Source: an uncultured archaeon
GTDB taxonomy: Archaea; Thermoplasmatota; Poseidoniia; MGIII; CG-Epi1
Length of the DNA: 64,000 nucleotides
Direction of reading: 5' to 3'
Assembly (NCBI GenBank): GCA_964389465.1
Contig: CAYMDK010000004.1
Location: forward strand, 15,034-79,033
Notes under the pieces: model-generated
Told to the model about the DNA's origin: nothing
The model's input: the letters and a program-made list of their open reading frames with translations, nothing else
Databases searched by the model: none
Part shown: positions 12,272 through 47,951 of the stretch, piece by piece
How the letters are laid out: each line of letters starts with the position of its first letter
Position numbering within the stretch: position 1 is the first letter of the stretch
Program-made: the position numbers and the translations under genes

Positions 12272-12318
12272 GCTGCCCTATCGACGACCACTATTTGAGG
12301 CATGCGCGGCAGGAACCC

Positions 12319-12326
12319 ATATTTAT
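12319..12326 (+). promoter_or_regulatory. TATA box (ATATTTAT) for the giant surface-protein gene
   Basis: It ends 30 nt before ATG 12356, the start that yields a clean signal peptide (MSSPRLPLVALALLAALLLFPTADG). Confidence 0.45.
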
Positions 12327-12355
12327 CCCGGTCGCCGGGATGCCGGCGGGAGCCG

Positions 12356-32704: not shown

Positions 32705-32712
32705 TTTTATCT
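32705..32712 (+). promoter_or_regulatory. TATA box (TTTTATCT) for the TSP3-repeat gene
   Basis: Centred about 27 nt upstream of ATG 32736. Confidence 0.4.
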
Positions 32713-32735
32713 AGCGCGCCCCGGCGTAGCCGGGG

Positions 32736-35654
32736 ATGGCGGGAACGGGCGGCCGGCGCTACGTTGTGCTGGCGGTAGTAATCATGCTGCTGGCGGCGCT
32801 TCCGTTCTCCCCGCTGGTGAGCTTCCAGTCGTCGCAGCACATTGACCCTGCCAGCGCTACCGATGACCCGCACTTGCCGACCCGCGACAGCGATAACGAC
32901 GGGATGCCCGACTGGTGGGAGCTGATGCATGGACTGGACCCGTTCGACGCCGCCGATGCCGGCTGGGATACCGACCACGACGGCTTTGACCTGAACCGCA
33001 ACGGCGTGCTCGAGAGCTTCGAGAACTTCACCAATCTGATGGAGTTCGAGATGGAGTTGCTGCTCGGCAACTCGACCGACCCCAATGACCCTGATTCAGA
33101 CCGGGACGGGATACCGGACGGCTGGGAGGCGCTCTACGGCCTCAATCCGCTTTTCGAGGGCGATGCGGAACTGGATTTTGACAACGATGGCCATGACTTC
33201 GACCGCGGCGGGAGCATCACTGACTCCGAAAAGTTCACCAACCTGGCCGAATTCCAGAACGGCACCAGTCCGTGGGAGCCCGACAGCGACGGTGATGGGA
33301 TGGGGGACGGCTGGGAAGCGTACTGGTTCCTCGATCCCATGAGCGGCGTCGACGCCTGGCAGGATGCCGACAATGACGGTTGGGACGGTGACTTTAACGG
33401 CGACCTTTCATTCGCCGAGTTCTACACCAACCTCGCCGAATACCTGAATGACACAGCCCCGCGTGATACTGACACCGACAACGACGAGATGCCCGACGGC
33501 TGGGAGGTCGTCTACGGCCTCGACCCGCTCTTTCCCGGCGACAACTGGGGTGACCTCGACGGCGACGGTCTCGCCAACATCTATGAGTACAATAACAGTC
33601 TGCTCGACACTGGCTGGCGCCGTGCCGATGAGATTGACACGACTCGCCCCGACCTGAACGACACCGACGCTGACGGTCTGGGTGACTTCGCCGAACTGAG
33701 CACCTGGCTGACCGATCCGACCCACAATGACACCGATTTCGACGGGATGCCGGACGGTTGGGAGGTGCAGTATGGCCTCAACCCGCGCGACCCGGCCGAC
33801 GCGCGCGGCGACCTCGACAATGACGGCCACGACTATGACCGCTCGCAGGCGGTCGAGCCGGACGAATTCTACACCAACCTGCAGGAATACCTGAACGGGA
33901 CCGACCCCACCAACCCCGACAACGACAATGACGGGATTCCGGACGGCTGGGAGGTGCAGTATGGCCTCGACCCGCTCGACCCGACCGACGCGGTGCTCGA
34001 CACGGACGGCGATGGCTGGGACTTCAACCGCAACGGCGAAGTCGCCGGTAACGAGACCTTCACCAGCCTCGAGGAGTACAGCAGCGATACGCGCCCCAAT
34101 TTGAACGACACCGACGGCGATGGGATGTGGGATGGCTGGGAGGTGTGGTTCGGCCTCAACCCGCTCGACCCGTTCGACGCTGGCGTGGACTACGACCAGG
34201 ATGGCCATGACGCCAACTGGAATGGTAGTCTCGAGGCGGACGAGCTACACACCAACCTGCTCGAGTTCATGGCTGACACCAATCCGTGGGTCGCGGACAC
34301 GGACGGCGACGGGATGCGGGACGGCTGGGAATACCAGCAAGGGCTGGACCCCAACAACCCACTCGACAGCCTGACTGACACCGACAATGACGGCGTTGTC
34401 AACCGGCTGGAATACAACAATTCCCTTGCCGGCAGTAACTACACCGAGGTGGACGGCATCCTCTCGACCATCCCGCTGCTCAACGATACCGACGGTGACG
34501 GGCTGCTCGACGGTGAGGAAATCTTCGAGTATTTCACCGACCCGACCTGGAACGATACTGACATGGACGGTATGCCGGACGGCTGGGAAGTCCGGTACGG
34601 CCTCGACCCTCTCTGGGAGGGCGACGCCTGGCTCGATGGCGATAATGATGGCTACGATGCCAACCTGAACCTGAGCCTTGAGCAAGGGGAGCTGTACACC
34701 AACCTCGAGGAGTACCTCAACTCCACCGACCCGACCAATGGCGACAGCGATTTCGACGGCATGGCCGATGGCTGGGAAGTTTACTGGGGCTTCGACCCAC
34801 TCAACAGCAGCGACGCCATGGAGGACCCCGACAACGACGGGCTGGTGAACCTGTACGAGTTCAACAATTCTCTCGTCGAAGGCTACGACGAGAACGTGAT
34901 TGCCGCCGACGCGATTCCCGGCAGCGACCCGCTGGGACGCGACACCGACGGTGACCTGATTGAGGACGGCGAGGAGGTAGTCGCCGGAGACGACGACTAT
35001 GTCACCGACCCGTCCAATCCCGATTCGGACGGTGACGGGATGCCGGACGGCTGGGAGATTTCCTACGGCCTCGACCCGTTCGACGCCAGCGACGCCGACG
35101 ATGACCCTGACGACGACGGCTGGGATTTCGACCGCAACGGCACGCGTGAACCGGAAGAGAAATTCACCAACCTCGAGGAGTACCTCAATGGCACCGACCC
35201 GTGGGAGGCCGACTCCGACGGCGACGGAATGCCCGACGGCTGGGAGGCGTGGTACGGGCTCGACCCGGGCGACGCGGCTGACGCACCGCTAGACCTTGAC
35301 GGCGACGGCTACGACGCCGACCGCAACGGCGAGCTGTCGCCCGAGGAGAAATTCACCAATCTCGAGGAGTTCCGCAACAACACTAACCCGGCGCTGCCCG
35401 ACAGCGACGGCGACAACTGCACCGACGGCTGGGAGGTTTACTGGGACGAGCACAAGCCGGCCAACGAGACGCGCGGCTTCGACCCGCTCGACGCCAGCGA
35501 CGGCGGCCTCGACTACGACGACGACGGCTGGGAGGACTGGGAGGGCAACTGGCACGACTTTCCCAACTGGCGCGAAGAGGAGGCGATGACCGACCCGTGG
35601 GACGCCGACTCGGACGACGACGGGATGAGCGACGGCTACGAGGCGGACAATTGA
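32736..35654 (+). CDS. Secreted thrombospondin-type-3 (TSP3) calcium-binding repeat protein, ~14 modules
   Basis: The N-terminal hydrophobic anchor or signal is YVVLAVVIMLLAALPFSPLV. Recurring ~60-aa modules follow, of the form D.D.DG[MI]PDGWE..YGL[DN]P.D..DA..D.D.DG.D..RNG......FTNL.EY.NGT.P. Confidence 0.85.
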   Translation: MAGTGGRRYVVLAVVIMLLAALPFSPLVSFQSSQHIDPASATDDPHLPTRDSDNDGMPDWWELMHGLDPFDAADAGWDTDHDGFDLNRNGVLESFENFTNLMEFEMELLLGNSTDPNDPDSDRDGIPDGWEALYGLNPLFEGDAELDFDNDGHDFDRGGSITDSEKFTNLAEFQNGTSPWEPDSDGDGMGDGWEAYWFLDPMSGVDAWQDADNDGWDGDFNGDLSFAEFYTNLAEYLNDTAPRDTDTDNDEMPDGWEVVYGLDPLFPGDNWGDLDGDGLANIYEYNNSLLDTGWRRADEIDTTRPDLNDTDADGLGDFAELSTWLTDPTHNDTDFDGMPDGWEVQYGLNPRDPADARGDLDNDGHDYDRSQAVEPDEFYTNLQEYLNGTDPTNPDNDNDGIPDGWEVQYGLDPLDPTDAVLDTDGDGWDFNRNGEVAGNETFTSLEEYSSDTRPNLNDTDGDGMWDGWEVWFGLNPLDPFDAGVDYDQDGHDANWNGSLEADELHTNLLEFMADTNPWVADTDGDGMRDGWEYQQGLDPNNPLDSLTDTDNDGVVNRLEYNNSLAGSNYTEVDGILSTIPLLNDTDGDGLLDGEEIFEYFTDPTWNDTDMDGMPDGWEVRYGLDPLWEGDAWLDGDNDGYDANLNLSLEQGELYTNLEEYLNSTDPTNGDSDFDGMADGWEVYWGFDPLNSSDAMEDPDNDGLVNLYEFNNSLVEGYDENVIAADAIPGSDPLGRDTDGDLIEDGEEVVAGDDDYVTDPSNPDSDGDGMPDGWEISYGLDPFDASDADDDPDDDGWDFDRNGTREPEEKFTNLEEYLNGTDPWEADSDGDGMPDGWEAWYGLDPGDAADAPLDLDGDGYDADRNGELSPEEKFTNLEEFRNNTNPALPDSDGDNCTDGWEVYWDEHKPANETRGFDPLDASDGGLDYDDDGWEDWEGNWHDFPNWREEEAMTDPWDADSDDDGMSDGYEADN
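32884..35651 (+). repeat. In-frame tandem array of TSP3-like modules (period ~170-200 nt)
   Basis: GWE-containing cores occur near 32900, 33105, 33300, 33490, 33745, 33935, 34125, 34315, 34570, 34765, 35040, 35230, 35415 and 35625. Segments 33750-33803 and 33939-33992 differ at only 4 of 54 nt. Confidence 0.8.
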
Positions 35655-35719
35655 CGCGCAGCCCGGCCCAAAACCTATATGTAGCAAAACCTCCCGTCGG
35701 AACGCGCAGGTGCGCGTAA

Positions 35720-38700
35720 ATGGAGAGGCAGAAGTGGCTGAGTTTGCTGGTCGCGCTGGTGATGCTGCTCACGCCACTGGCGGCGCTGCCGGTTTTCGGC
35801 TCTAACCCGAATGACCCGGACGGCGACGAGGACGACGACAGCGACGGCTACGACGCCGACCGCGACGGCGAAATCTCGGCCGAGGAGATGTATACCAACC
35901 TCGAGGAATACAATAACAATACCAACCCCAACGACCCCGACACCGACGGCGGCGGCGCGTGGGACGGCTGGGAAATCTACTACGGCTTCAACCCGCGCAA
36001 CGTCACCGACGACGGCGCCGACCCTGATAGTGACGAGCTCTCCAACTACTGGGAGTTCGCATGGGACACCGACCCCTTCACCGCCGATAGTGACCAGGAC
36101 GGGATGCCCGACGGCTGGGAGCATTATTACTCGGTGAAGAACGACCAGTGCGGCCTCGACCCCTCCGACTTCAGCGACCAGCACGCTGACCCCGACAACG
36201 ACGGCTCGGACAACCTGCGCGAGTACAACGAAAACACAGACCCGTGCGACGAGGACAGCGATGACGACGGCGACCCGGACGGCGAGGACCCGCCGCCCAT
36301 CGAGCCGGGCGAGCCGCCCGGCACCAGGCCCGATACCGGGCGGACCGACGGCAACGTCACGATTTACGAAATCTTCGACCCGGCGCTGATGACGCTCAAG
36401 CGCTGGTCGGCGCAGGACGCGCTATACTACGACAGCTCGAGCACTGACCCTTACACCATGTATATCTATGATACTTCAAAAGTCGAAATCTTCCCCACCG
36501 GCTCGACCGATTACACGCACATCTTCGAGGGGTGGCTCTGGATGGGTGTGATTGTCTCGGCCGAGGTCTACACGCCGATTCCCTCGGTCTCGCCCGACGC
36601 CGACATTATCGACTACGACGCCAACCAGACCGGCCTCGAAATCTACTTCTACAAGGATGGCGCTGACAACTACTACATCCGCGGCAGCGAGGGCGCAAGC
36701 ATCGACCTGCGCTACCGCATGGGAACCAACGGTTCCTACTTCAACCGGCCCGTGGACGACACGCTCACCACCGCAGACCTGCCCCCGGAGGCGATTCGCC
36801 CCATCACCGGGCAGTCCGAGGTCGAGGAGAAGGTGAAGCAGTTCCTGCAATTGGAGAACGGGACCGAGCCGGCCAACCCGCCGCTCTACTGGCTCTGGCC
36901 CGAGAACGGCACGATGGAGACCAACCTCGAGAAGCTCGTCACCAACCTCACCTGGTATTTCTCCAACTTCCGCGAGGGTGACGGCGACGTCCCCGACCCC
37001 GAGCCGCCCTACGACATCTACCAGTCCATCTGTATCAACGGCATCGGCGCCTGCCGCCACCGCTCGTTCGGCTTTTTCGTCACCGCCAACGTGCTCGGTT
37101 TGCCGACGCGTTACGTCTCGAACGAGGCGCACGCCTTCGTCGAGGTCTACGTCCCCGTGAACAACCAGACCTACTCTGACAGCCACTGGAAGCGCATCAA
37201 CCTCGGCGGCACCGGCTCGAGCACCACCCTCGACCGCCCCGACGATGATGAAGGGGGTGACGAGTTTGATTTCGACGAGTTCGACCCCGATGATATCGAG
37301 AACATGACTGGCGAACAGGTCACCGTCGTGCTCGAGGGCGTGAGCCCCGCCGCGGCCGACAAGGGCGACGAGTTCCGCCTCTGGGGCTACGTCGAGGACC
37401 GCAACGGCACTCGCATTCCTGATTTCCTTGTCGGTGGCGGGATGTGGGACGACGGCCATGACGAATCCTCGTTCGAGATTGGCACCGGAGTTACCAACGC
37501 TACCGGCGTCTTCGACTTCAACGCCTCCGGCTTCCTCGCGGCACTGCCGGGGTGGAACGAAATCTACGCCGCCGCTTACATGGCGGGATTCAGGGGCTAC
37601 GACGGGCCCGAGGATATCGAGGTCTCGACCGCGACCGTGCTCACCGTTGACGCGCCCGCCTCGGTCGGGAAGGGGCAGGAGCTGATAGTTACCGGCAGCT
37701 TGCTCGATATCGGCGATGTCGCCGCGCCCGAGGAGATGCTCGACATCTGGCTCTGGGAGGGCAACAACGAACCGTGGTGGACCAACTGCCAGAATTCCGG
37801 GTGGCGCTACCGCTGCGACATCGGCGACGTGACCACCGACGAGTTCGGCAACTTCGCCTTCACCTGGACCGTCCCGGAGAACGGCGAGCCGGCGTCCGCC
37901 AACAACTACCACGTTGAGGTCACCTTTGGTGGCTCGACCTACCGCTACGCGACGCAGGAGACGGTTAACCTGCGCATCCTCGAATCGTCGGTCGACCTCG
38001 AGGCGTGGCTCGATCCCGACAACGTCACGGTCAGCCATGACTTCTTCGTCAATGGCACTATCATGCAGGGCGCGGTGGGCGAGGGGAGCATCTCCGTCGA
38101 ACTCGACGGCAAGGTCATCGCCTCGGCCGCGGTCAGTGACACAGACTGGTCGTTCGAGGTCGTGGCACCGCTGGACCTCCCGGCCGGCGACTACACCGTG
38201 CTGGTAATTTTCTACCCCGACGACCCCGACAATTCGACACTACCCGAGGAGCGCGTCTCGTTGACGCTGACGCTGCTCGGGACGAGCAGCGTCTCACTCG
38301 ACGCACTGCCAGACGCGATTCGCAACGGTCCCGTAATGCTCGAGGGGCGGTTGGTTGACCACCTCGGCGAGCCGCTGGCGGACGAGGCCGTCGCCCTGTC
38401 GTGGGATGGCGGATTGGTCGGCAGCGCCACCACCGAAGCTGACGGCGATTTCGAGCTGGAAATCCAGCTGCCGATTACGCACGCGCTGGGGCTGACAGCG
38501 TGGGAAGCTAGCTTCGACGGCAGTGCGCTGCACTCTGGTTCCACCGCTTCGACCGAGACGACCGTGCTACAGCAGACCGTCCTCGAGCTGGCGGTTTCGG
38601 GCCGCCACTTCTACCCCGGTGACAGCGTACAGGTCGACGGCAGCCTCGCGATGGACAATGGCACTCCGCTCGCCGGCAGCCTCAACCTGCTGCTCGACGG

Positions 38701-41629
38701 CGTCTTCGTGCGCGTCGAAGTGGCCGACGGCGTTTTCTCTTTCTCGTACGTGCCCGACACATCCTACCTTGCGGTCGGCGCGCACATTTTCGAGCTGGAT
38801 TACGGCCGCGACGGGACCAACGCCGCAGCCTCCAATTCGACGACGCTCTGGCTCCACCGCACGGTGCTCCTCGAACTGGAGGGGCAGGAAATACGGCGCG
38901 GCGAAAGCATTACGCTGGAGGGCGACGCGCGCGACAGCGGCTCGCTTCCGGTCGCCGGCATCGAAATCAGTTTTGACTGGCCCGACGCGCCCAACCAGCC
39001 GCCCTCGGCGACCACCGGCGCTAGTGGAGACTACGAGAGCGACTTCACGGTGCCCAATGCGCAGCTGCTCGGCGAGGTCGAGGTGCGCGCGCTCTTCGAC
39101 AACGCGACCGCACCTTACTACGACTCGGCTGAAACCGCAGCGCAGTTCACCGTCGTGAGCGATATGCTCATCACGCTCGAGCAGCAGCAGCTGGTGCGCG
39201 GCGAGCAAGTCTGGTTCAACGGCACGCTCTACGATGACCGCGGTGAGCCGGTCGAGGACCTGGCGCTGAACCTGTTCTGGAATGAGGATTACCTGACCAA
39301 TTTCGAGGGCGACGCCAACGGCAGCTTCGCGATTGCGTGCGACCCCGCATGGCCTTGCGGGGACGCGGAGCACCCGGTCGGCGAGGTCGCGGTACGGCTC
39401 TCCTTCGACGGCTTCGGCTGGTATATGCCGGCCGAGCTGGAGCAGTCATGGCCGCTCTGGGGTCGCGCGATTACGACACTCGAAACATTCTCGCCGGTGG
39501 TCGTGGCTGGCAGCAACGTCACCTACTCCGGGACGGTGCGCAGCGACCTCGACGAACCGCTCGACCGCACGCTTGCGGTACTCTGGAACGGGATTACGCG
39601 CACAACCGTCGAGGCGGTGAACGGCGAGTTCAGCGGCAGCTTCGCGCTGTCTACCGACGCGCCGGTCGGCAACTTTACGCTGACGCTCGCGACCAGCGAC
39701 CAGAACTGGCTGCGCGGCACTTCCGACTCGGGCACGGTCACGGTGCAGCGCTACACGACCATCGAGCTGGTTTGGGAGCAGGGCTTCCGCAACGCGACTA
39801 CGGCGGTCACCGGCTGGCTGCGCGACTCCTCCGGCGCGGGGCTGCCGGGCGAGGAGCTGGCGTGGAGTTTTGACGAGGCGCCGGCCGGCACCACGCTCTC
39901 GGTCGAATTCGGCGCGCTACCCTTCAGCTTCAATGTCCCTGAAGCGACGACGCTCGGCCCGCACACTTTCAGCGCCAGTTTCGCTGGCAGCTACTTCTAC
40001 CTTCCCTCGACCGGAGCCGTAACCGGCGACATCGTCGCCGCGACCAGCTTCGCGCTTGAGCCGCTTGAAGTGCAGCGCGTGCTCGAATTCACTCTGGAGG
40101 CGACGCTGCTCGACGACCTCGGCGCTCCGCTCGGGGGCGAAATGGTGACGCTCACGCTGCGCGGCAACCCGCACGAGCTGATGACGGCGGGCGACGGCAC
40201 GGTCTCGATTGACCTGACGCTGCCGGCATCGCAGTCACTCGGCCCGCTGACGGCGACCTGGAATTTTGGCGGCCGCGACTACTACCTCTCCGGCAGCACG
40301 CCGCATTCGCTTACCGTCATCAGCCCGACGCAGCTGACGCTGTCGGCGGGTGACGCGGTGCTGGTGGGCGAGAGCTTCCACGTCAGCGGCGGACTCACCG
40401 ACGACCTCGGCGCGGCGCTGCAGGGCGACATCGAGTTCTATCTCGGCGGCCTGCCGGTGGCGACGCTCGCGACCGGAAGCGACGGTTCCTACAGTTATGA
40501 CTTTGCGGTCCCGACCGACCTGCTGGCAGGGCAGAACACGCTGACGGTGCAGTTCGCCGGCAGCGGCTGGTTCCTCCCCTCTTCGGCTTCGCAGCAGGTG
40601 CAGGTCTACCACACCACGCACCTGACGGTCGCGCCAGCCGAGGGCGTCCTGAACCTGACGACCTTCATCGAGGGCAGCATTGTTGACCGTGCCGGTCGGC
40701 CGGTGCCGGGACTCATCCTGCGCGCGGCGCTGCCGGACGGCACCGAGGGTGCCGCAATTTCCGACGCGGAGGGCAACTTCGCGATTCCGCTCGCGCTGCC
40801 GTTCTCGCTCGGAGTCGGCGATTACAACGTCACCGTCACCTTCGCCGGCAGCCAGGATTACTACGGCAACTCGACCGTCGCTTCGCTACGCGCGAAGGCG
40901 GGAACGCTGACGGAACTGGACGTCCCCGCCTCGCTCGAGTCGGGCCAGCAATTCAGCGGGCTGATTATACTGACTCTCGAGGATGGCACGCCGCTCGCCA
41001 ACGCACCGCTGCTGGTTAGCCTCGAGCCGTCGGGGATGACGCTACTCGCGGTCACCGACGCCAACGGCACCGCGCGCTTCAGCGCCGAATTCGACGGCAA
41101 CGCCACCCAGCCATTCTTCGTGCGGGTGACCTATCAGGGCGACGAATTCCACCTCAGCAACTCGGCCGAGGCGGCCATCACCTGGCGCGCGCCGCCCGAG
41201 GTCCCGAACTACCTGCTCTGGCTGCTGGTTGCGCTGGGGGTCGCCGCCGCGGGTGGGACCGCCTACGGCTGGCACTGGTATGCGACGCGCCACATCCGCG
41301 CCATCCGCAAGGTGCTTACGACCACCGCCGAGGCGCTCGAGGCCAACGCCGACTACCGTGAGGCGATTATCAGCTCATACCGCGAGATGTCGCGCGTCCT
41401 GCAGGGGCACGGCTACCTGCGGCGCAACTTCGAGACCGTGCGCGAGTTCCGCGACGCGCTGCGCGAGGCGGTCCCGCTGGACCACGCCTCCATCGAGCGG
41501 CTGACGTCGCTCTACGAGGCGGCCGATTACTCGACGACTGACCAGCATGGTGATGACCGCACGGCGGCCATCGGCTCATTGCGGGCGGTCCTCGAGAGCC
41601 TTGAAACGCTGATGCAGGACGCAAGCTGA
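35720..41629 (+). CDS. Giant surface protein: signal - TSP3 repeats - transglutaminase-like core - ~13 Ig-like repeats - TM - DUF4129
   Basis: The signal is LLVALVMLLTPLAALPVFG. TSP3 motifs include DGMPDGWEHYY. The TGase core is GIGACRHRSFGFFVTANVLGLPTRYVSNEAHAFVEVYV. Roughly 100-aa repeats are of the type DGxFxFxxxxPxxxxxGxYxVxVxFxG. The TM helix is LLWLLVALGVAAAGGTAYGWHWY. The DUF4129-like tail is YREAIISSYREMSRVL..FETVREF..LTSLYEAADYS. Confidence 0.85.
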   Translation: MERQKWLSLLVALVMLLTPLAALPVFGSNPNDPDGDEDDDSDGYDADRDGEISAEEMYTNLEEYNNNTNPNDPDTDGGGAWDGWEIYYGFNPRNVTDDGADPDSDELSNYWEFAWDTDPFTADSDQDGMPDGWEHYYSVKNDQCGLDPSDFSDQHADPDNDGSDNLREYNENTDPCDEDSDDDGDPDGEDPPPIEPGEPPGTRPDTGRTDGNVTIYEIFDPALMTLKRWSAQDALYYDSSSTDPYTMYIYDTSKVEIFPTGSTDYTHIFEGWLWMGVIVSAEVYTPIPSVSPDADIIDYDANQTGLEIYFYKDGADNYYIRGSEGASIDLRYRMGTNGSYFNRPVDDTLTTADLPPEAIRPITGQSEVEEKVKQFLQLENGTEPANPPLYWLWPENGTMETNLEKLVTNLTWYFSNFREGDGDVPDPEPPYDIYQSICINGIGACRHRSFGFFVTANVLGLPTRYVSNEAHAFVEVYVPVNNQTYSDSHWKRINLGGTGSSTTLDRPDDDEGGDEFDFDEFDPDDIENMTGEQVTVVLEGVSPAAADKGDEFRLWGYVEDRNGTRIPDFLVGGGMWDDGHDESSFEIGTGVTNATGVFDFNASGFLAALPGWNEIYAAAYMAGFRGYDGPEDIEVSTATVLTVDAPASVGKGQELIVTGSLLDIGDVAAPEEMLDIWLWEGNNEPWWTNCQNSGWRYRCDIGDVTTDEFGNFAFTWTVPENGEPASANNYHVEVTFGGSTYRYATQETVNLRILESSVDLEAWLDPDNVTVSHDFFVNGTIMQGAVGEGSISVELDGKVIASAAVSDTDWSFEVVAPLDLPAGDYTVLVIFYPDDPDNSTLPEERVSLTLTLLGTSSVSLDALPDAIRNGPVMLEGRLVDHLGEPLADEAVALSWDGGLVGSATTEADGDFELEIQLPITHALGLTAWEASFDGSALHSGSTASTETTVLQQTVLELAVSGRHFYPGDSVQVDGSLAMDNGTPLAGSLNLLLDGVFVRVEVADGVFSFSYVPDTSYLAVGAHIFELDYGRDGTNAAASNSTTLWLHRTVLLELEGQEIRRGESITLEGDARDSGSLPVAGIEISFDWPDAPNQPPSATTGASGDYESDFTVPNAQLLGEVEVRALFDNATAPYYDSAETAAQFTVVSDMLITLEQQQLVRGEQVWFNGTLYDDRGEPVEDLALNLFWNEDYLTNFEGDANGSFAIACDPAWPCGDAEHPVGEVAVRLSFDGFGWYMPAELEQSWPLWGRAITTLETFSPVVVAGSNVTYSGTVRSDLDEPLDRTLAVLWNGITRTTVEAVNGEFSGSFALSTDAPVGNFTLTLATSDQNWLRGTSDSGTVTVQRYTTIELVWEQGFRNATTAVTGWLRDSSGAGLPGEELAWSFDEAPAGTTLSVEFGALPFSFNVPEATTLGPHTFSASFAGSYFYLPSTGAVTGDIVAATSFALEPLEVQRVLEFTLEATLLDDLGAPLGGEMVTLTLRGNPHELMTAGDGTVSIDLTLPASQSLGPLTATWNFGGRDYYLSGSTPHSLTVISPTQLTLSAGDAVLVGESFHVSGGLTDDLGAALQGDIEFYLGGLPVATLATGSDGSYSYDFAVPTDLLAGQNTLTVQFAGSGWFLPSSASQQVQVYHTTHLTVAPAEGVLNLTTFIEGSIVDRAGRPVPGLILRAALPDGTEGAAISDAEGNFAIPLALPFSLGVGDYNVTVTFAGSQDYYGNSTVASLRAKAGTLTELDVPASLESGQQFSGLIILTLEDGTPLANAPLLVSLEPSGMTLLAVTDANGTARFSAEFDGNATQPFFVRVTYQGDEFHLSNSAEAAITWRAPPEVPNYLLWLLVALGVAAAGGTAYGWHWYATRHIRAIRKVLTTTAEALEANADYREAIISSYREMSRVLQGHGYLRRNFETVREFRDALREAVPLDHASIERLTSLYEAADYSTTDQHGDDRTAAIGSLRAVLESLETLMQDAS
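37315..41190 (+). repeat. ~13 tandem, divergent Ig-like/beta-sandwich repeats (protein level) in the TGase protein
   Basis: Recurring strands include TDEFGNFAFTWTVPE, EADGDFELEIQLP, ADGVFSFSYVPD, GASGDYESDFTVPN, GSDGSYSYDFAVPT, DAEGNFAIPLALP and DANGTARFSAEF. Each is followed by a ..V.F.G...Y..S.. strand. Confidence 0.7.
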
Positions 41630-41632
41630 AGC

Positions 41633-42922
41633 ATGCGCCTCTCCAGCCGGGCTGGACTCGCCATCCTGCTGGTGACAGTCCTGCTCTGCAGTTTCCTGCT
41701 CTTTCCGCTGTTCCAGGGCGTCGTTTCGCGTCCGCCGCAGCTCTCGGCCTATGGTGACGACTGGAATGACGTCTCGCTCTTTCGCGAATCGCTCGAGGAG
41801 GAGGGCTACGAAGTCACCGCCATCCTCTCCAACCCGGCGGTCATCAACGACATCACCGTCCACGACCAGACGCTGGTAATCATCACTGGCACCGAGTCGC
41901 CATATTCGGCGCTCGAGGTCGAGGTGCTCGCCAGCTACCTCGAGCAGGGTGGACGGGTGCTGGTGCTGGGCGATTTCGACTTTTCCAACTCGATAGCGGA
42001 CCTCTTCACCGCCAGCTACACCGGTCACCGGCTCTGGGACCAGAATTACCAGGGCAACGTCTCGATGGTCGAGGTACGCGCTTCGCTCGGCGGCGGCAGC
42101 TACACGCTGCTGCTCAACGAGCCGACCGCACTGCGGACGCGGCAGCCGGTCACCACCCCGCTCTGGGGCGCCGGAGTCGAGCTGACCGAGAGTGTGATCA
42201 TCTCCAGTTCGTCCAATTCGTATATCGACCTCGATGATGACGGTGTCATCACCCCCGAGGACGACGTCGCGGGGCCGGCCGGTTTCCCGGTCGGAGTCTG
42301 GTGCGGGCTGCGTATGGAGGGCGAAGAGCTGGGGCAGGCGGTCTTCATCGGCGACTCGTCACTCGCGATTAACCGCATGTGGGAGCGCGAGGACAACGCT
42401 GAGTTCATGCTCGACCTGGTGGCGGAGATGCTGCCCGACGGGGGGACTGTGCTCTTCGACGAGTCGCGCCACACGCAGGACACCTTCGGCGCGAGCCTGT
42501 TCCAGGCAGCAATTGGCTTCTATTTCCTGCTCTCGGGGCAGACGCTGATAATCCAGGCCATCCGGCTCAACGTGCTTGTTGTCGTCATCCTGGCGACGCT
42601 GATGGTCGCGCTGCGGCAGCCGGAGCCGATTCGATGGCGCCATCTATTCGACATCCACCGGCCGCGACCGTGGCGCGGGCTGGGGAATCCCTCCATCGCG
42701 CAGCTGCAGCAGTTGCTGCTCGAGCGGATGCGGTTGCGGCACCAGCTTTACGAGCTCGATGACCTCGCTCCTGAGGAGCGGCTGGCGCTGGTGCCGGAAC
42801 TGGTCAAGCGTTATAACATCCTGCTGGATGCCGGGCTTAGTGCGCTCCTGTTCCGGCCCGATTCGGTAAAGGAGGAGGACATCCGCGTGCTGGCGCAGAA
42901 GATAGAGGCGTGGTCAACGTGA
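41633..42922 (+). CDS. DUF4350-like membrane-anchored protein (MoxR-cluster component)
   Basis: The N-terminal TM helix is LAILLVTVLLCSFLLFPLF. A GldG/DUF4350-like flavodoxin-type segment follows (LVIITGTESPYSALEVEVLASYLEQGGRVLVLGD, VLFDESRH), then a late TM. The gene starts 3 nt after the upstream stop. Confidence 0.6.
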   Translation: MRLSSRAGLAILLVTVLLCSFLLFPLFQGVVSRPPQLSAYGDDWNDVSLFRESLEEEGYEVTAILSNPAVINDITVHDQTLVIITGTESPYSALEVEVLASYLEQGGRVLVLGDFDFSNSIADLFTASYTGHRLWDQNYQGNVSMVEVRASLGGGSYTLLLNEPTALRTRQPVTTPLWGAGVELTESVIISSSSNSYIDLDDDGVITPEDDVAGPAGFPVGVWCGLRMEGEELGQAVFIGDSSLAINRMWEREDNAEFMLDLVAEMLPDGGTVLFDESRHTQDTFGASLFQAAIGFYFLLSGQTLIIQAIRLNVLVVVILATLMVALRQPEPIRWRHLFDIHRPRPWRGLGNPSIAQLQQLLLERMRLRHQLYELDDLAPEERLALVPELVKRYNILLDAGLSALLFRPDSVKEEDIRVLAQKIEAWST

Positions 42923-43896
42923 GCAAAACCAAACTTTCAATCAAGGAGACCGGCAAGCTGGCCGACGTAATCCAGGCCGAGGTGGGCAAGGTCGTGCTGG
43001 GCAAGCAGCAGAACATTGAGCTGCTGATGGCAGCGGTGCTCGCCAACGGAAACATCCTCTTCGAGGATTTCCCGGGACTGGCAAAGACGCTGATGTCCAA
43101 CACCCTCGCCGACACGCTGGGGTGCAAGTTCAAGCGCATCCAGTTCACCCCCGACCTGCTGCCGGCCGATATCACTGGTTCCTATTTTTTCGACCCCGAG
43201 AAGAACAAGTTCACCTTCCGCGAAGGGCCGATTTTCTGCAACCTGTTGCTGGCGGATGAAATCAACCGCGCGCCGCCCAAGACGCAGGCCGCCTTGCTGG
43301 AGGCGATGCAGGAGAAGCAGATTACCATCGAGGGCACGACGCACATCCTGGAGCGGCCGTTCATCGTGCTGGCGACGCAGAATCCCATTGAGTACGAGGG
43401 GACCTACCCGCTGCCGGAGGCGCAGATGGACCGCTTCCTCGTCAAGCTATCTGTCGGCTACCCGGACGAGGAGGTCGAGGCCTCCATCCTGGCCGCCCGC
43501 GCCGAGCGCAAGCACGACGCGTTCGAGGTGGAGAGCATAGCCTCTCCGGTAGAAGTGGTGGCGATGCATCGCGCCGTCGAGGAAGTGTTCGTCAAGCATG
43601 AAATCATGCAGTACATGGTGAGCCTCGTGCAGGGCACCCGCAGCGACCCGCGCGTCGCAGTCGGCTCGAGCCCGCGCGGGTCGCTGGGGCTGTTCAAGCT
43701 TTCGCGCGCGCTGGCGTTGCTTTCGGGGCGCGATTACGTGGTTCCCGACGACGTCAAGCGCTCGGTCATCCCGGTGCTGGCGCACAGGATAATCCTGAAG
43801 CCGGAGGCGCGCATCCGCGGTGTCAAGCCGGAGCAGGTGCTGGCGGAGCTCCTGACCACGGTCGATGTCCCGGCCGTCAAGGTCGAAGACGAGTAG
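42910..43896 (+). CDS. MoxR-family AAA+ ATPase
   Basis: ILFEDFPGLAKT (Walker A variant), LLADEINRAPPKTQAALLEAMQE (Walker B/sensor) and VLATQNPIEYEGTYPLPEAQMDRF are present. GTG 42910 or GTG 42919 is the start, the latter as a GTGA overlap with the upstream stop. Confidence 0.9.
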   Translation: MVNVSKTKLSIKETGKLADVIQAEVGKVVLGKQQNIELLMAAVLANGNILFEDFPGLAKTLMSNTLADTLGCKFKRIQFTPDLLPADITGSYFFDPEKNKFTFREGPIFCNLLLADEINRAPPKTQAALLEAMQEKQITIEGTTHILERPFIVLATQNPIEYEGTYPLPEAQMDRFLVKLSVGYPDEEVEASILAARAERKHDAFEVESIASPVEVVAMHRAVEEVFVKHEIMQYMVSLVQGTRSDPRVAVGSSPRGSLGLFKLSRALALLSGRDYVVPDDVKRSVIPVLAHRIILKPEARIRGVKPEQVLAELLTTVDVPAVKVEDE

Positions 43897-45144
43897 ATGT
43901 GGACTCGTAAGGCGGTAACTTACACCGGCCTCGGCACCATCCTGGTGCTCTTCGCGCCTTTCATCAACAACCTCCAGCTGCTGCTTCTCGGCATCACGCT
44001 GCTCGGTTTCGTCGCAGTCCACAGCCTCGTGAATACGAGCCCGGTCAGCGTCAACATCACCCGCCGCTTCTCCGACTCGCAGATTTTCGAGGGGCAGGAG
44101 GCGGAGGTGGAGCTCGTAATCCAGAATCGCGGCCGCGCCATTGGCTTCCTTGAAATATTCGACCAGCTGCCGCACGAGGTGGAGCTGGCGGGCGGCCTCA
44201 ACCACACCATTGTGCGGCTCCACCGCAACGAGGCGCTGCTGGCGCATTACCGCCTCGAGTGCCACCTGCGCGGGCAGTACCAGCTGGGTAAGCCGCGGCT
44301 GCGGCTCTACAACCCGTCGTTCCTCTTCTACTACGAGTCGGACGTTGAATCCGAGTCGACGCTGGTGGTTTTCCCCAAAATTGAGGCGCTGGAGGGGCTG
44401 GACCTCTCGAGCGATTTCCCCAAGATGTACCAGGGCGCAATGCCCATCCGGCGTATCGGGACAAGCGGCGAGTTCTACTCGATTCGCGAATACTACCCCG
44501 GCGACGATTTCAAGAACATCAACTGGCGCGTTTTTGGCAGGACGCGCAAGCTGATGGTCAACCAGTTCGAGCGCGAGGATATCAGCGACGTGATGCTGGT
44601 GCTTGACGCACGTGAGATTGCCGGCACCGGCACACCGGTCCACAATCCGCTCAACTACGGCTGCCGCGCCGCCGCGGCGCTGGTCGACTACTTCCTGCAC
44701 ACTCGCAACCGCGTCGGCCTCACGGTTTACGGCGAGGCGGTCGAGTCCATCGGCGTCGACAGCGGGGAACGGCACCTCTACCGGCTGCTGACGAAGCTAT
44801 CCGAGGTGCGGCCGGCCGGTGCCCTGGGGCTGCACACGGTAATCGGCGAGCTGCGCAACTTCACCCCGCGCTCGCCAGTCATCGTCATCTCGACCCTCGA
44901 GCAGGACCCGACAGTGCACGCCGCGCTGCGTGAAATCACCGCGCACGGCTTCAAGCTGACGTTGATTGCGCCCGACACGCTGGAGTTCGACCGGGAGTCG
45001 CGCATCATCTCGCCGGCAGTCTACTTCACCGCCTCGGCCGAGCTGGACAACAACATCGCCGAGGCGCGCTCGCTCGGCGCGCGCGCGCTGCGCTGGGACC
45101 CTGACTCGGTGCTGGGGCCGGCGCTGCAGGAGGTGGTCAAGTGA
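43897..45144 (+). CDS. DUF58 protein (vWA-like partner of MoxR), two N-terminal TM segments
   Basis: EFYSIREYYPGDDFKNINWRVFGRTRKLMVNQFERE is the DUF58 signature. The ATG directly abuts the MoxR stop (TAGATG). Confidence 0.85.
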   Translation: MWTRKAVTYTGLGTILVLFAPFINNLQLLLLGITLLGFVAVHSLVNTSPVSVNITRRFSDSQIFEGQEAEVELVIQNRGRAIGFLEIFDQLPHEVELAGGLNHTIVRLHRNEALLAHYRLECHLRGQYQLGKPRLRLYNPSFLFYYESDVESESTLVVFPKIEALEGLDLSSDFPKMYQGAMPIRRIGTSGEFYSIREYYPGDDFKNINWRVFGRTRKLMVNQFEREDISDVMLVLDAREIAGTGTPVHNPLNYGCRAAAALVDYFLHTRNRVGLTVYGEAVESIGVDSGERHLYRLLTKLSEVRPAGALGLHTVIGELRNFTPRSPVIVISTLEQDPTVHAALREITAHGFKLTLIAPDTLEFDRESRIISPAVYFTASAELDNNIAEARSLGARALRWDPDSVLGPALQEVVK

Positions 45145-45980
45145 TTGCGCATCCGCGCTTGTTCGCTATGCAGGTGCTCGCGACCGCGGCGCTGGCGGCG
45201 TGCGCCTGGCTCGGTTACGTCGTCTCGGCGGGCACCGATTCGCTGCTGACACAGGCGCTCAACGTGGTGCTCAGCTTGTTCGGGCTCGACCCGATATTCA
45301 CCGCGAGCGCCGAGACGGTCGCGGGCGGCATCATGCTGGGGCTGCTGCTGGGCGGCGTGCTGGCGCTGGCCGACGAGCGCGGCTACGGCTACTGGGTCGG
45401 CGGGACGCTGGCGCTGCTGCCATTCCTGCTGGCGTGGCTCTCGCTGACCGGCCGCTCGCCGTTTGCGCCCGAGCCGCTGCACGCGCTGGCCAACTTCGGC
45501 TGGCTGGGGCTGCCGCTGCTCGCCGGCACTTTCGGCATATGGCGTAACTCGCTGCCGACTATCGCCATCGGCGCGCTGTTGCTACTGGTGCAGCCGCTCA
45601 ACCTCGCGGGGAACGATACCAGCGCCATCTTCGCCATCCTCGGCTTCATCTTCTGCTTCATGCTCTACATCGAGCTCGCTTACGGCCACCTGCGCTACGC
45701 GCGGCTGGCGCGCATCATGAACTACTCGGGCGAGTTCGGCTCGGTGCTGAACTGGTTCGGCATGATGCTGCTGCTGACGCTCGGCTTCACGACCCTGCTC
45801 ACCGCCGCCGCCTTCGGCTTCCACGACCTGCTCGGCAGCGTCCTCCCGCCGCGGTTCCATAACTCCATCGAGTTCAACACCATCTACGGCCGCGCGCTCT
45901 CGGTGATGACCTTCTTCGCCCTCTGGGCGATTGCGCAGACCATCTTCTCGCGGCAGTTCCTCGCGCGGCAGGTGGAGTAG
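45141..45980 (+). CDS. Hypothetical polytopic (~7 TM) membrane protein, last gene of the MoxR cluster
   Basis: GTGA start/stop overlap with DUF58 and hydrophobic throughout. No family recognised. Confidence 0.55.
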   Translation: MIAHPRLFAMQVLATAALAACAWLGYVVSAGTDSLLTQALNVVLSLFGLDPIFTASAETVAGGIMLGLLLGGVLALADERGYGYWVGGTLALLPFLLAWLSLTGRSPFAPEPLHALANFGWLGLPLLAGTFGIWRNSLPTIAIGALLLLVQPLNLAGNDTSAIFAILGFIFCFMLYIELAYGHLRYARLARIMNYSGEFGSVLNWFGMMLLLTLGFTTLLTAAAFGFHDLLGSVLPPRFHNSIEFNTIYGRALSVMTFFALWAIAQTIFSRQFLARQVE

Positions 45981-45986
45981 GCGTCC

Positions 45987-46637
45987 GTGAAATGGGTCGT
46001 CTTCGACGCGGTCGGGACGCTGATGTATCCCTGCCCCGGCGTACCGCTCGCCTACCACGAAATTGGCCGGCGCTACGGCTCGCGGCTCTCCGAGGCGGAG
46101 GTGCGCGAGCGGCTGTCGGTCGCCTTCGGGAGCGTGGTGCGGCCGCGCGGCGACCGCACCTCGGCGGACGACGAGCAGGCGTGGTGGCGGCGCGTCGTCG
46201 CCGCGACGCTAGCTGACGTCAGCGACCCCGAAGCCACTTTCGACTCGCTCTGGGCCAACTTCGCGGCGGCGCAAAGCTGGTGCCTCTACGGCGACGTTGC
46301 GGCGGGGGTCGCCGCTGTCGCCGAGCGTGGGCTGCGCGCGGCGGTCGCGTCCAACTTCGACGCGCGGCTCGAAGGCATCATCGGCGGCCACGCGGAGCTC
46401 GACGCGGTGCGGCCGGTGCTGCACGCGGCCGGGCTGGGGTGGCGCAAGCCGGCGCGGCAGTTCTTCGACGCCGTGTGCGCCGAGCTGGATTGTGCGCCCG
46501 ACGCGGTGCTCTACGTCGGAGACGACCCGCACGGCGACGTTACGGCAGCGCGCGCAGCCGGGATGCGCGCGCTGCTCGTCGCACGCGACGGAGGTGGCGA
46601 CCTGCACAGTCTGGCGCAGCTCGTGGGGCACCTGTGA
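45987..46637 (+). CDS. HAD-superfamily hydrolase (subfamily IA-like)
   Basis: Motif I is VVFDAVGTL, motif II is AVASNFD, motif III is GWRKP and motif IV is YVGDDPHGDV. Confidence 0.75.
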   Translation: MKWVVFDAVGTLMYPCPGVPLAYHEIGRRYGSRLSEAEVRERLSVAFGSVVRPRGDRTSADDEQAWWRRVVAATLADVSDPEATFDSLWANFAAAQSWCLYGDVAAGVAAVAERGLRAAVASNFDARLEGIIGGHAELDAVRPVLHAAGLGWRKPARQFFDAVCAELDCAPDAVLYVGDDPHGDVTAARAAGMRALLVARDGGGDLHSLAQLVGHL

Positions 46638-46679
46638 TTGCGCCCGCAGCCGCTTAAACCCGCGACGCCTCCGCGAGCC

Positions 46680-47951
46680 ATGACGCTGCGCGACGACGCC
46701 GAGTCGATTTACCACGCGGCGGTCGCGGCGGTGCAGCCGGAGGTGCTGCTGCCGCAGCACATGGAGCGCGACGGCGACCGGCTCCGGTTCCCCGCCATCG
46801 AGCTGGAATGGCAGCTGGACCGCAACGTCAGGCTCGCCGCGTTCGGCAAGGCAGCCTCGGGAATGGTGCGCGCGGCCGAAGCCATCCTTGGCGAGCATAT
46901 CGTCGCCGGCATCGCGAGCGTTCCCGTCGGGACCCCTGCGCACGACGGCGTCAGCGCGTTCCACCCGGGCGCCGCCGACAACCTGCCCGACCGCGACGCA
47001 ATGGAGGCGGCCGGACGCATCCGCGACCTCGCCGTGGGGGCGTCCGCGGACGAGCTGCTGCTGGTGCTGATATCGGGCGGCGGCTCGGCGCTGCTGCCGC
47101 TCCCCGCCGCCGGCATCACGCTCGAGCAGAAACTGGCGACGACGCGCGTGCTCGCCAACGCAGGAGCGACAATCAGCGAGCTGAACGTGGTGCGGCGCCA
47201 CCTCTCGGCGCTCAAGGGGGGGCGGCTGGCGCGGCTCGCTGCGCCAGCGACGGTCGCCGCGCTCGCCATCTCGGATGTCATCGGCGACCCGCTGCCCGAC
47301 ATAGCCTCGGGTCCGACGGTCGGCGACGATTCGACTTACGGCGACTGCCTCGCCATCGCCGCGCGGCTCGGCGCCGGGCTGCCGCCTGCGGTCGCGGCGC
47401 ATCTCAAGCGCGGCGCGGCTGGCGAACTCGAAGAGACGCCCGCTGCGACGCCGCCGAACGTCCGCACGGCGGTCATCGGGTCGAATCGCATCGCGCTCGA
47501 GGAGGCGGCCGCGGCGGCCGCCGCCCGCGGCTACGCGGCGGGCATCGTCACCGACGCGCTGGAGGGCGAGGCGCGCGACGCCGGAAAGCAGGTCGCGCGC
47601 CGCATCGCGGGCGAGCGCGGCCGCCGCTGCCTGCTCTGGGGCGGCGAGACGACCGTGACGGTTACCGGGGACGGCCGCGGAGGCCGTTCGCAGGAGCTGG
47701 CGCTTGCGGCCGCAATCGAGCTGGCCGGCAACGCTGGCGTCGGCCTGCTCGCCGCCGGGACCGACGGGCAGGACGGGCCGACCGACGCCGCCGGCGCGTG
47801 GGTGGATGGCGGGACACCGGTCACTGGCGCACGGGCGGCGCTCGGCGCCAACGACTCGCACGGTTTCCTGGCGCCGACTAGCGCGCTGTTCCGCCCGGGG
47901 CTGACCGGCACCAACGTCATGGATATCGTCATCGGGCTGGTCGACAGGTAA
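46680..47951 (+). CDS. Glycerate 2-kinase (DUF4147 + MOFRL, TtuD-type)
   Basis: LLVLISGGGSALLPLP, ELNVVRRHLSALKGGRLA, ISDVIGDPLPDIASGPT and WGGETTVTVTGDGRGGRSQELALAAA are present. The ORF opens at TTG 46638, but ATG 46680 is preferred. Confidence 0.85.
   Translation: MTLRDDAESIYHAAVAAVQPEVLLPQHMERDGDRLRFPAIELEWQLDRNVRLAAFGKAASGMVRAAEAILGEHIVAGIASVPVGTPAHDGVSAFHPGAADNLPDRDAMEAAGRIRDLAVGASADELLLVLISGGGSALLPLPAAGITLEQKLATTRVLANAGATISELNVVRRHLSALKGGRLARLAAPATVAALAISDVIGDPLPDIASGPTVGDDSTYGDCLAIAARLGAGLPPAVAAHLKRGAAGELEETPAATPPNVRTAVIGSNRIALEEAAAAAAARGYAAGIVTDALEGEARDAGKQVARRIAGERGRRCLLWGGETTVTVTGDGRGGRSQELALAAAIELAGNAGVGLLAAGTDGQDGPTDAAGAWVDGGTPVTGARAALGANDSHGFLAPTSALFRPGLTGTNVMDIVIGLVDR

Follow-up and report, generated by a model that had tools for sequence, protein, structure and literature searches.

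A predicted stalked giant protein with a TgpA-like enzyme domain in a DUF4350-MoxR-DUF58 gene cluster of a Marine Group III archaeon

Introduction

Modules that combine a MoxR-family ATPase and a DUF58 protein with partners of the DUF4350 and DUF4129 families are common among both archaea and bacteria, Mycobacterium and Pseudomonas being examples, and they lack an established mechanism. For archaea, a neighbourhood of arCOG01314 (DUF4350), MoxR (COG0714) and a von Willebrand factor A (vWA) protein was predicted to encode a secretion or membrane-remodelling complex, in which the DUF4350 protein is related to GldG (Makarova, Galperin, Koonin 2015, PMC5898192). Here we describe six genes, g1 to g6, spanning positions 32736-45980 of a 64-kb stretch of DNA (the window) from a Marine Group III (MGIII; Poseidoniia) archaeon. 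An earlier interpretation of this DNA, made without database searches (the sequence-only reading), had placed the cluster in a recurrent prokaryotic neighbourhood, whose core in archaea had indeed been described before. Judged by its domains and gene order, the locus is best explained as an MGIII elaboration of the archaeal DUF4350-MoxR-DUF58 envelope module of the arCOG01314 type.

Several bacterial systems are also close in composition. TgpA (PA2873) of Pseudomonas aeruginosa presumably carries DUF4129, going by its Pfam architecture, and we take the upstream genes PA2875 and PA2874 to encode MoxR and DUF58 proteins. TgpA is an essential protein with transglutaminase (TGase) activity in vitro, and its gene shares a transcript with PA2875-PA2874 (PMC3507681). 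A table on mycobacteria lists, within Rv3689-Rv3695, the DUF4350 protein Rv3691, MoxR2 (Rv3692), the DUF58 protein Rv3693, the SpoIIM-like Rv3694c and the RDD protein Rv3695 (PMC8191103). In the actinobacterial Esr pathway, EsrA1, with 14 Ig-like domains, is accompanied by the predicted transglutaminase EsrD, MoxR and a vWA protein (bioRxiv 2026, PMC13622651), and the bifidobacterial PFNA cluster comprises fn3, aaa-atp and duf58 together with tgm (PMC8430577). Thrombospondin-type genes are widespread in Poseidoniales and are taken there as markers of adhesion (PMC6461757).

Results

An archaeal envelope module with additional surface proteins

The MGIII locus resembles the arCOG01314 module in the following points. 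Its DUF4350 protein (g3) begins with a signal peptide and has a C-terminal transmembrane (TM) segment, the adjoining gene (g4, which overlaps g3 by 13 nt) encodes a MoxR ATPase, a DUF58 protein (g5) joins an Ig-like to a vWA-like region, and the operon encodes further membrane proteins as well as surface proteins with Ig domains. In contrast to that module, the Ig partner (g2) is here 1969 aa long and is fused to a TgpA-like enzyme, to TSP3 modules and to a DUF4129 tail, a gene for a TSP3 array (g1) precedes the cluster, and the extra membrane protein (g6) is an orphan rather than arCOG02884/DUF1616, a partner type for which Pfam gave no match on g1-g6 or their flanks. We took the Pfam curated cut-offs as the yardstick for domain calls on the six proteins, and TSP3_bac, DUF4129, DUF4350, AAA_3 (MoxR) and DUF58 all exceeded them; the three assignments that the sequence-only reading had put up for refutation (DUF4350, DUF58 and DUF4129) are among these.

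All six open reading frames (ORFs) lie on the + strand, and their junctions, read from the sequence, are exactly as had been claimed. A 65-nt gap holding the TATA-like element CTATATGTA (35675-35683) separates g1 from g2, and a 3-nt gap (TGA-AGC-ATG) separates g2 from g3; the GTG start of g4 lies 13 nt inside g3, where a second in-frame GTG makes GTGA with the g3 stop, and the last two junctions read TAGATG (g4/g5) and GTGA (g5/g6). The overlaps are kept in orthologues, at -13 or -7 for g3/g4 and at 0 or +8 for g4/g5.

The DUF4350 protein g3 (41633..42922, + strand, 429 aa, GIFT/GldG-like) matched PF14258 with 49.4 bits (cut-off 30.4, E 8.3e-13), and further weak Pfam matches were to IFT52_GIFT and ABC_transp_aux. 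Its aa 21-124 (41633-42004) also matched OST48, a subunit of the eukaryotic oligosaccharyltransferase, weakly (E 0.022). GldG, IFT52 and OST48 are related through the GIFT domain, and the weak matches of g3 fit this kinship, in agreement with the relation to GldG described for the archaeal family. The predicted topology is a signal peptide (hydrophobic aa 3-32), an ectodomain, a TM segment (aa ~301-333) and a cytoplasmic tail of ~95 aa.

The next gene, g4 (42910..43896, + strand, 328 aa), encodes a MoxR-family AAA+ ATPase, predicted to be cytoplasmic, with strong AAA_3 (213 bits, E 1.5e-63) and AAA_lid_2 (3e-23) matches, 2R44 as its closest solved structure (E 2e-80) and an intact Walker B motif (LLLADE). 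It is followed by g5 (43897..45144, + strand, 415 aa), a DUF58 protein (67.5 bits, cut-off 23.4, E 1.2e-18) with an Ig-like region and a vWA-like domain, of which an orthologue from Marine Group II (MGII) gave weak DUF11/BatD-like matches. Since the N-terminal TM hairpin of g5 (aa ~8-45) is flanked by positive charges on both sides, the body of the protein is predicted to be cytoplasmic. The predicted topology thus agrees with the earlier proposal that MoxR and DUF58 work on the cytoplasmic side of the membrane and the enzyme outside.

The last gene, g6 (45141..45980, + strand, 279 aa), encodes an all-helical polytopic membrane protein of an orphan family of 17 clusters, which occupies the g6 position in 10/10 MGIII loci and whose C-terminal half is strongly conserved (IELAYGHxRY, FHD, NSIEFNTIYGRALS). 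Searches of g6 and its orthologues against Pfam, NCBIfam and PADLOC returned noise only, and an AlphaFold (AF2) model (predicted local distance difference test score, pLDDT, 72) had no fold match in the PDB (best E 0.6), to a transporter or otherwise. The Rce1-like neighbours of bacterial TGase homologues, described below, prompted us to consider g6 as a CPBP/Rce1-like protein, an idea that nothing supports.

The mycobacterial region Rv3689-Rv3695 agrees with the MGIII cluster in the order of its DUF4350, MoxR and DUF58 genes and in the polytopic membrane proteins encoded behind them; unlike the MGIII cluster, it has neither a giant enzyme-stalk protein nor a TSP3 gene, and its trailing membrane proteins fall into named families (SpoIIM, RDD), whereas g6 does not. 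With the Esr and PFNA systems the MGIII cluster shares a secreted or tethered Ig/FN3 filament, a TGase-like protein, MoxR and vWA/DUF58 in one cluster. However, filament and TGase are separate proteins in those systems and one polypeptide in g2. Those systems also include, as integral parts, Ser/Thr kinases, a phosphatase and FHA proteins, whereas none of these is encoded among the flanks of the MGIII cluster in the window, which has DUF4350 and g6 instead.

A giant protein with a TgpA-like core at the tip of a presumed stalk

The gene g2 (35720..41629, + strand) encodes a predicted membrane-anchored giant of 1969 aa, in which a signal peptide, three TSP3 modules, a beta-sandwich with a thiol-enzyme core, 12-13 Ig-like domains, a TM helix and a DUF4129 tail, cytoplasmic in the predicted topology, follow one another. 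The beta-sandwich and the transglutaminase-like (papain-fold) core occupy aa ~214-500 (36359..37219, + strand), and the catalytic candidates, checked at the codon level, are Cys445 (37052-37054), His471 (37130-37132) and Asn494 (37199-37201). About 95 proteins annotated with PF01841 match aa 201-560 of g2 (E ~1e-31 to 1e-9), and the Cys and the His as well as the GxCRHRS and NEAHA motifs are invariant in the 21-38 homologues aligned. Furthermore, an AF2 model of the core (pLDDT 75.9; predicted template modelling score, pTM, 0.76) gave 6G49, the periplasmic domain of TgpA, as the best PDB match by Foldseek (E 1e-7, probability 1.0), followed by 3ISR, a putative cysteine protease; identity to TgpA in the structural alignment is just 12-14%. 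The PF01841 homologues, the invariant Cys and His and the fold match to TgpA together argue for a real transglutaminase-like core in g2 despite a sub-threshold Pfam score. The transglutaminase component of the sequence-only reading thus failed the Pfam test and was recovered through homologues and fold, and TgpA, which had been named as the reference, indeed proved to be the best structural match.

Like TgpA, g2 is predicted to place its enzyme domain outside the cytoplasmic membrane and has a C-terminal TM segment. Unlike TgpA, it does not have the DUF3488 multi-TM N-terminus (no Pfam match to DUF3488 on g2, and just one N-terminal hydrophobic segment before the TSP3 modules), its enzyme sits at the tip of the Ig-like domains rather than clamped to the membrane, the Asp of the triad is replaced by Asn, TSP3 modules have been added, and the domain falls by sequence into a clade with ~570-aa Myxococcota proteins. 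Those proteins share with g2 the beta-sandwich, the core and a single Ig-like domain, and their GxCRHRS and NEAHA motifs are the same; they differ in being short, in having the triad Asp, and in the absence of TSP3 modules, a long stalk and DUF4129.

The presumed stalk consists of 12-13 tandem Ig-like domains (Big/CarboxypepD_reg/MG-type) of ~97 aa each, at aa ~545-1821 (37352..41182, + strand), in keeping with the ~13 counted before. Pfam recognised Big_3_5, CarboxypepD_reg, Big_1 and MG4 in this region, and an iterated repeat hidden Markov model (HMM) resolved 12 clear Ig-like units plus one N-terminal unit, whose homologue in the bacterial relatives is their C-terminal domain; the single Ig-like domain of the bacterial TGase proteins appears, from this comparison, to have been multiplied in g2. 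Behind the stalk, hydropathy and Pfam place a TM helix (aa ~1831-1853) and then the cytoplasmic DUF4129 domain (aa 1887-1951; together 41210..41572, + strand), the latter with 29.0 bits against a PF13559 cut-off of 24.8. The cytoplasmic tails of g2 and g3 were compared and show no similarity.

At the other end, aa 26-190 (35795..36289, + strand) form three 63-aa TSP3-type modules of the kind found in g1. Pfam TSP3_bac did not match the g2 N-terminus; by BLASTP, however, it is 42% identical to g1 (E 5e-32), and a module HMM matched it three times (E 3e-23 to 2e-11). TSP3 repeats had been postulated here, and they are thus supported by kinship with g1 rather than by a Pfam call.

g1, an acidic array of TSP3-type modules

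The gene g1 (32736..35654, + strand) encodes a predicted secreted, acidic repeat protein of 972 aa, with an N-terminal signal or anchor segment (aa 4-32) and without a C-terminal anchor. TSP3_bac matched it with 70.2 bits (cut-off 25, E 1.2e-19), and the module HMM found 13 full and four partial 63-aa modules at aa 33-970, so that g1 is made almost wholly of the same TSP3 modules, as had been stated. As for membership of the bacterial TSP3 repeat family (PF18884), g1 passes and the g2 N-terminus qualifies through its homology to g1 only. The composition of g1 is extreme, with 19.8% Asp, 0.4% Lys (four residues) and a net charge of ~-238, and 19 D.D.D[GN]..[DN] motifs are of the Ca2+-loop type, suggesting putative Ca2+ binding. 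Against the NCBIfam equivalogs of the Myxococcus proteins, g1 stayed under the cut-off (MtsD, 175 bits vs 800; CglD, 168 vs 400), and by these scores its likeness to CglD and MtsD is at the repeat level only.

Depletion of Lys extends to all the extracellular and membrane proteins g1, g2, g3 and g6 (0-0.7%, vs 6.4% in the cytoplasmic MoxR g4). N-x-S/T sequons number 24 in g1 and 29 in g2, many of them within a repeated YLN(G/D)T(D/N)P motif.

Promoter-like elements before g1 and g2

A TATA-like element, TTTTATCTA (32705..32713, + strand), stands ~25-30 nt 5' of the g1 ATG in the window, and its counterparts TTATATCTA and TTTATAGA, together with a hairpin, stand in the same place in four relatives (L005 and L007-L009); all lineages compared have a TTTATC or TTTATAG element ~25-30 nt ahead of this ATG. 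The hairpin (CCCCGG-cgtag-CCGGGG, 32719-32735; 6-bp stem, 5-nt loop) directly abuts the g1 ATG, is identical in L005 and has another sequence of the same shape (ACCAGT-tatag-ACTGGT) in L007 and L008, and the 5' end of the g1 transcript may carry a conserved structure here. The element in the g1-g2 spacer (CTATATGTA, 35675..35683, + strand) stands ~40 nt 5' of the g2 ATG, which is preceded at 8 nt by GGTG, and its core ACCT(A/T)TATGTA is kept at the same spacing to the g2 start in L004, L005, L007 and L008, whose G+C content (0.37-0.52) is below the ~0.63 of this part of the window.

The conserved TATA-like elements before g1 and between g1 and g2 are consistent with two archaeal promoters, and we infer from them two or more transcription units, one with only g1 and another starting at g2, rather than one coupled six-gene unit. 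Of the translationally coupled six-gene system proposed earlier, the tight g2-g6 junctions therefore stand, whereas the TATA-like element would split g1 from g2.

Distribution among relatives

A scan with g3, in which each species was represented by one genome, yielded 80 loci, and every one of them comes from Poseidoniia or from marine archaeal/euryarchaeal metagenome-assembled genomes (MAGs) that are unclassified. The closest relatives are 95-96% identical, the next, labelled Marine Group III, ~71% and then ~51%, and the remaining matches (25-35%) belong to MGII (Poseidoniales, Thalassarchaeaceae); a protein search with DUF4350 found only MGIII sequences among the matches listed (at least 120). 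Synteny was determined by tblastn and ORF calling, with an independent gene call on one 1.6-Mb MGIII contig. The block M24 peptidase-g1-g2-DUF4350-MoxR-DUF58-g6 is present in 6/6 MGIII loci that reach far enough upstream, although their G+C content (0.37-0.52) differs from that of this part of the window (~0.63-0.66). Genes just downstream of g6 are rearranged among MGIII loci, and g1 and g2 are never split in the six. On the 1.6-Mb long-read contig (L082 4044-9999), the giant was called as three ORFs of 677, 1115 and 123 aa, which probably reflects assembly frameshift errors rather than a true split.

In 70 MGII loci, just DUF4350 and DUF58 were found by these means within 10 kb. In 11 of them, the g6 HMM, supplemented by hhalign, matched the ORF directly downstream of DUF58 (E 6e-6 to 8e-4), always in synteny, so that the MGII module (L011-L080, e.g. 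L038 9857-14073) consists of a longer DUF4350 protein (~500-570 aa), DUF58 and a ~405-aa distant relative of g6. DUF4350, DUF58 and a g6-like protein, being shared by MGII and MGIII, thus form a conserved Poseidoniia core, and on this comparison MoxR, the giant g2 and g1 are the MGIII features of the cluster. The synteny of the TSP3 gene in relatives, which the sequence-only reading had named as a test, accordingly extends to every MGIII locus that could show it and to none of the MGII loci. In L038, a Cdc48 AAA ATPase gene lies upstream of the three-gene module.

An exhaustive profile search placed the enzyme domain in a family of ~700 representative clusters (E <=1e-30), almost all of 430-670 aa. 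The sole giant among the top 150 matches to this domain is P0312 (L083 5304-12764), a 2486-aa protein from an archaeal MAG that is 26% identical to g2 over 1706 aa. Its TSP3 region is longer and its TGase core exceeds the Pfam cut-off; it has Big_3_5 repeats and a DUF4129 tail, as well as a second TGase-like copy in which the catalytic Cys is replaced by Gly, and its neighbours are Gar1, TFIIB and a Peptidase_C25 gene.

The closest non-MGIII relatives of the enzyme region are the ~570-aa Myxococcota (Kofleriaceae) proteins, at 28-36% identity. Both Myxococcota contexts examined (L081 10001-15643; P0010) contain an Rce1-like CPBP intramembrane protease; one also encodes a 990-aa protein with nine CarboxypepD_reg domains and a PDZ domain, and the other ClpB-like AAA proteins. 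An origin of g2 by fusion of the Myxococcota TGase gene with that 990-aa neighbour was considered and rejected, as BLASTP gave repeat-level similarity only (E 0.01).

Surroundings of the cluster

The genes flanking the cluster encode M24 peptidase, TPD, GSDH, HAD, DUF4147/MOFRL, 2-hydroxyacid dehydrogenase, GATase and ATG22/MFS proteins. Past 45980, the tight run on the same strand goes on through a HAD hydrolase, a DUF4147/MOFRL glycerate-kinase-like gene and a 2-hydroxyacid dehydrogenase, none of which stands beside the cluster in more distant relatives. The boundary at 45980 drawn by the sequence-only reading is thus not an end of the gene run. Oligo-T runs are absent from every intergenic spacer between 32.6 and 49 kb.

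Long antisense (- strand) ORFs lie opposite g2 (36476-38038, 520 aa), g4/g5 (43447-44775, 442 aa) and the glycerate-kinase-like gene (46209-47861, 550 aa). One of them was checked against Pfam and gave no match, and they are most likely artefacts of the high G+C content. Elsewhere in the window, a second giant ORF (12302-23986, + strand, 3894 aa) contains Beta_helix/NosD, InhA-like MAM, Laminin_G_3 and PKD domains. It sits in a segment with a G+C content of 0.50-0.54 between flanking DNA of 0.68-0.70, and this segment may be a horizontally acquired surface-protein island.

Discussion

The cluster encodes three membrane proteins (g2 and g3, with cytoplasmic tails, and the polytopic g6) together with a cytoplasmic AAA+ ATPase, and the same tight operon encodes a membrane-tethered DUF58 protein, while the Cys-His-Asn domain of g2 lies at the distal end of 12-13 Ig-like domains and is capped by three TSP3-type modules. 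We favour, with a probability of roughly 45%, a reading in which MoxR and DUF58 switch or assemble a stalked enzyme that acts on external proteins, its TSP3 cap recruiting g1 into an adhesive layer. In such a complex, MoxR and DUF58 would engage the tails of g2 (DUF4129) and g3 (DUF4350) on the cytoplasmic side and would serve the surface protein g2 as a chaperone of its assembly or conformation. The Ig array would form a stalk of ~45-50 nm that holds the enzyme beyond the cell envelope, where it might catalyse transamidation or peptide/isopeptide cleavage of external proteins, and the TSP3 cap would recruit the anchorless g1 by homotypic Ca2+-dependent contacts. The resulting layer, glycosylated and highly acidic, would suit a particle-associated, protein-degrading lifestyle. 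The Ig filament, the enzyme and the DUF4129 tail lie in a single polypeptide in MGIII, and the filament and the enzyme are separate proteins in PFNA and Esr, which argues on comparative grounds for physical cooperation of these parts. The weakest points of our reading are the connection with g1 and the kind of chemistry. The model proposed earlier, of cross-linking and a Ca2+ matrix, is plausible.

Several observations weigh against this reading. The P-loop of g4 (aa ~52-60) reads EDFPGLAKT where 2R44 has EGVPGLAKT, an Asp for the first Gly that is identical in 10/10 MGIII MoxR orthologues, and the vWA-like domain of g5 has LDAREI in place of the DxSxS metal-ion-dependent adhesion site (MIDAS), which is absent from all aligned MGII and MGIII DUF58 orthologues, where LDAREI or LD(S/T)R(D/Y) is found. 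Because of the P-loop Asp and the MIDAS-less DUF58, the usual MoxR-vWA mechanics may not apply. As for the enzyme, Transglut_core scored 16.6 bits on g2, under the Pfam cut-off of 23, and the canonical Asp is gone from the third triad position, which is Asn in the window, in L005, L007-9 and P0004; Asp occupies it in 90 homologues, among them the MGIII-like fragment P0001. The occurrence of both residues among close relatives, on the other hand, fits a His-orienting residue in an active enzyme. Moreover, neither MoxR, the giant nor the TSP3 gene is found within 10 kb in the 70 MGII loci, P0312 is not adjacent to MoxR, DUF58 or DUF4350, and all three are absent from both Myxococcota contexts examined. 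With regard to g1, just one Lys column is invariant among its orthologues, and with so few Lys residues a role of g1 as the Lys donor for a TGase is poorly supported; separate promoters seem to precede g1 and g2; and the upstream M24 peptidase gene and the more distal downstream genes are collinear across MGIII as well, which makes synteny weak evidence for a functional link to g1.

These last points lead to the account that survives best beside our own, in which g1 is functionally unrelated, one of many Poseidoniia thrombospondin-type adhesins held in place by inherited gene order, and the system consists of g2-g6, or of g3-g6 with a later-acquired g2. This account, compatible with any mechanism, draws on the separate conserved TATA-like elements of g1 and g2, on the equal collinearity of the M24 and distal genes, on the wide distribution of thrombospondin-type genes in Poseidoniales (PMC6461757), and on the MGII and P0312 contexts, in which g1 has no counterpart next door. 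However, three modules with 42% identity to those of g1 stand at the N-terminus of g2, and the two genes have stayed unseparated in six MGIII loci despite rearrangement just downstream of g6. We regard an unrelated g1 as a real, if tentative, possibility.

Other accounts keep the module together and assign it another task. The parallel with EsrA (14 Ig-like domains and a sensor head) and its TGase, MoxR and vWA partners (PMC13622651), and with PFNA (PMC8430577), suggests that g2 might be a surface filament that senses contact, Ca2+, particles or epibionts and signals through its TM helix and DUF4129 to DUF58 and MoxR, which would remodel a cytoplasmic target, the enzyme anchoring or processing the filament. 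The predicted cytoplasmic location of DUF58 and the DUF4129 tail suits such a route, and g4 also passes the bpMoxR model (30.4 bits vs a cut-off of 27), beneath its far stronger AAA_3 match. However, the neighbours of the cluster are metabolic enzymes, with no Ser/Thr kinase, phosphatase, FHA, beta-propeller or effector gene in the flanks, PADLOC gave no match, and the enzyme lies at the far end of the stalk, whereas anchoring would be expected close to the membrane; we therefore consider a sensor unlikely.

A secretion or surface-assembly machine, in which DUF4350, g6, DUF58 and MoxR export, fold or insert large repetitive surface proteins and g1 and g2 are cargo, would follow the prediction made for GldG-like DUF4350, MoxR and vWA proteins in 2015 (Makarova 2015; PMC5898192). 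It would account for a Poseidoniia core of DUF4350, DUF58 and g6-like proteins with varying neighbours, and it is in line with the weak GIFT and OST48 matches of DUF4350 and with the size, acidity and wealth of sequons of both g1 and g2. Nevertheless, these two proteins have ordinary N-terminal signal peptides, the MGII core has no such cargo genes nearby, the g6 model has no match to a transporter fold, and g2, with its system-specific DUF4129 tail, looks like a component rather than cargo. An export function for the module is thus improbable in our view.

The chemistry of the stalked enzyme might also be purely hydrolytic, with g2 as a tethered extracellular cysteine protease for feeding that digests particulate protein, the TSP3 modules and g1 adhering and the MoxR module maturing or activating the enzyme. 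The Cys-His-Asn triad is that of papain, and the second-best fold match, 3ISR, is a putative cysteine protease; TgpA, the closest characterised structural relative, has transamidase activity, however, and the close relative P0001 has Asp. Makarova, Aravind and Koonin are said to have predicted in 1999 that most microbial TGase-like proteins are proteases. Peptidases also occur nearby, namely an M24 Xaa-Pro peptidase conserved directly upstream of the cluster and the Peptidase_C25 gene near the related giant P0312 in its MAG, but the M24 enzyme shows no evidence of a signal peptide, and its adjacency may be mere collinearity. A feeding protease, too, has little probability in our estimate. A defence system can be dismissed, with no PADLOC match, the bpMoxR match as its sole link, and, in Pfam searches of g1-g6 and their flanks, none of the VMAP, iSTAND, FtsH, beta-propeller or effector domains of MoxR-vWA ternary conflict systems (Kaur et al. 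2020).

To return to the stalked enzyme switched or assembled by MoxR and DUF58, the core of the module has already been described as a predicted system, and work on its bacterial analogues is under way; what is specific to MGIII, as far as the loci compared tell, is the fused architecture with its enzyme at the distal end, the TSP3 cap and partner, and the orphan g6 family. The lack of a culture makes direct tests difficult, which limits the immediate value. A bolder version would treat the giant as a 'Rosetta-stone' fusion, in which a cytoplasmic AAA+ engine, acting through single-pass tails, controls an extracellular thiol enzyme ~50 nm off the cell, an integrin-like 'inside-out' control of adhesion or cross-linking, with the TSP3 protein as a Ca2+-dependent matrix substrate and g6 as a new membrane component. 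This version is a long shot; if true, it would reveal the role of the widespread DUF4129-DUF4350-DUF58-MoxR module. More modestly, g2 may provide a concrete client for the MoxR module, and the cluster may represent a candidate attachment apparatus for abundant, uncultured deep-ocean archaea that are thought to live on particulate protein.

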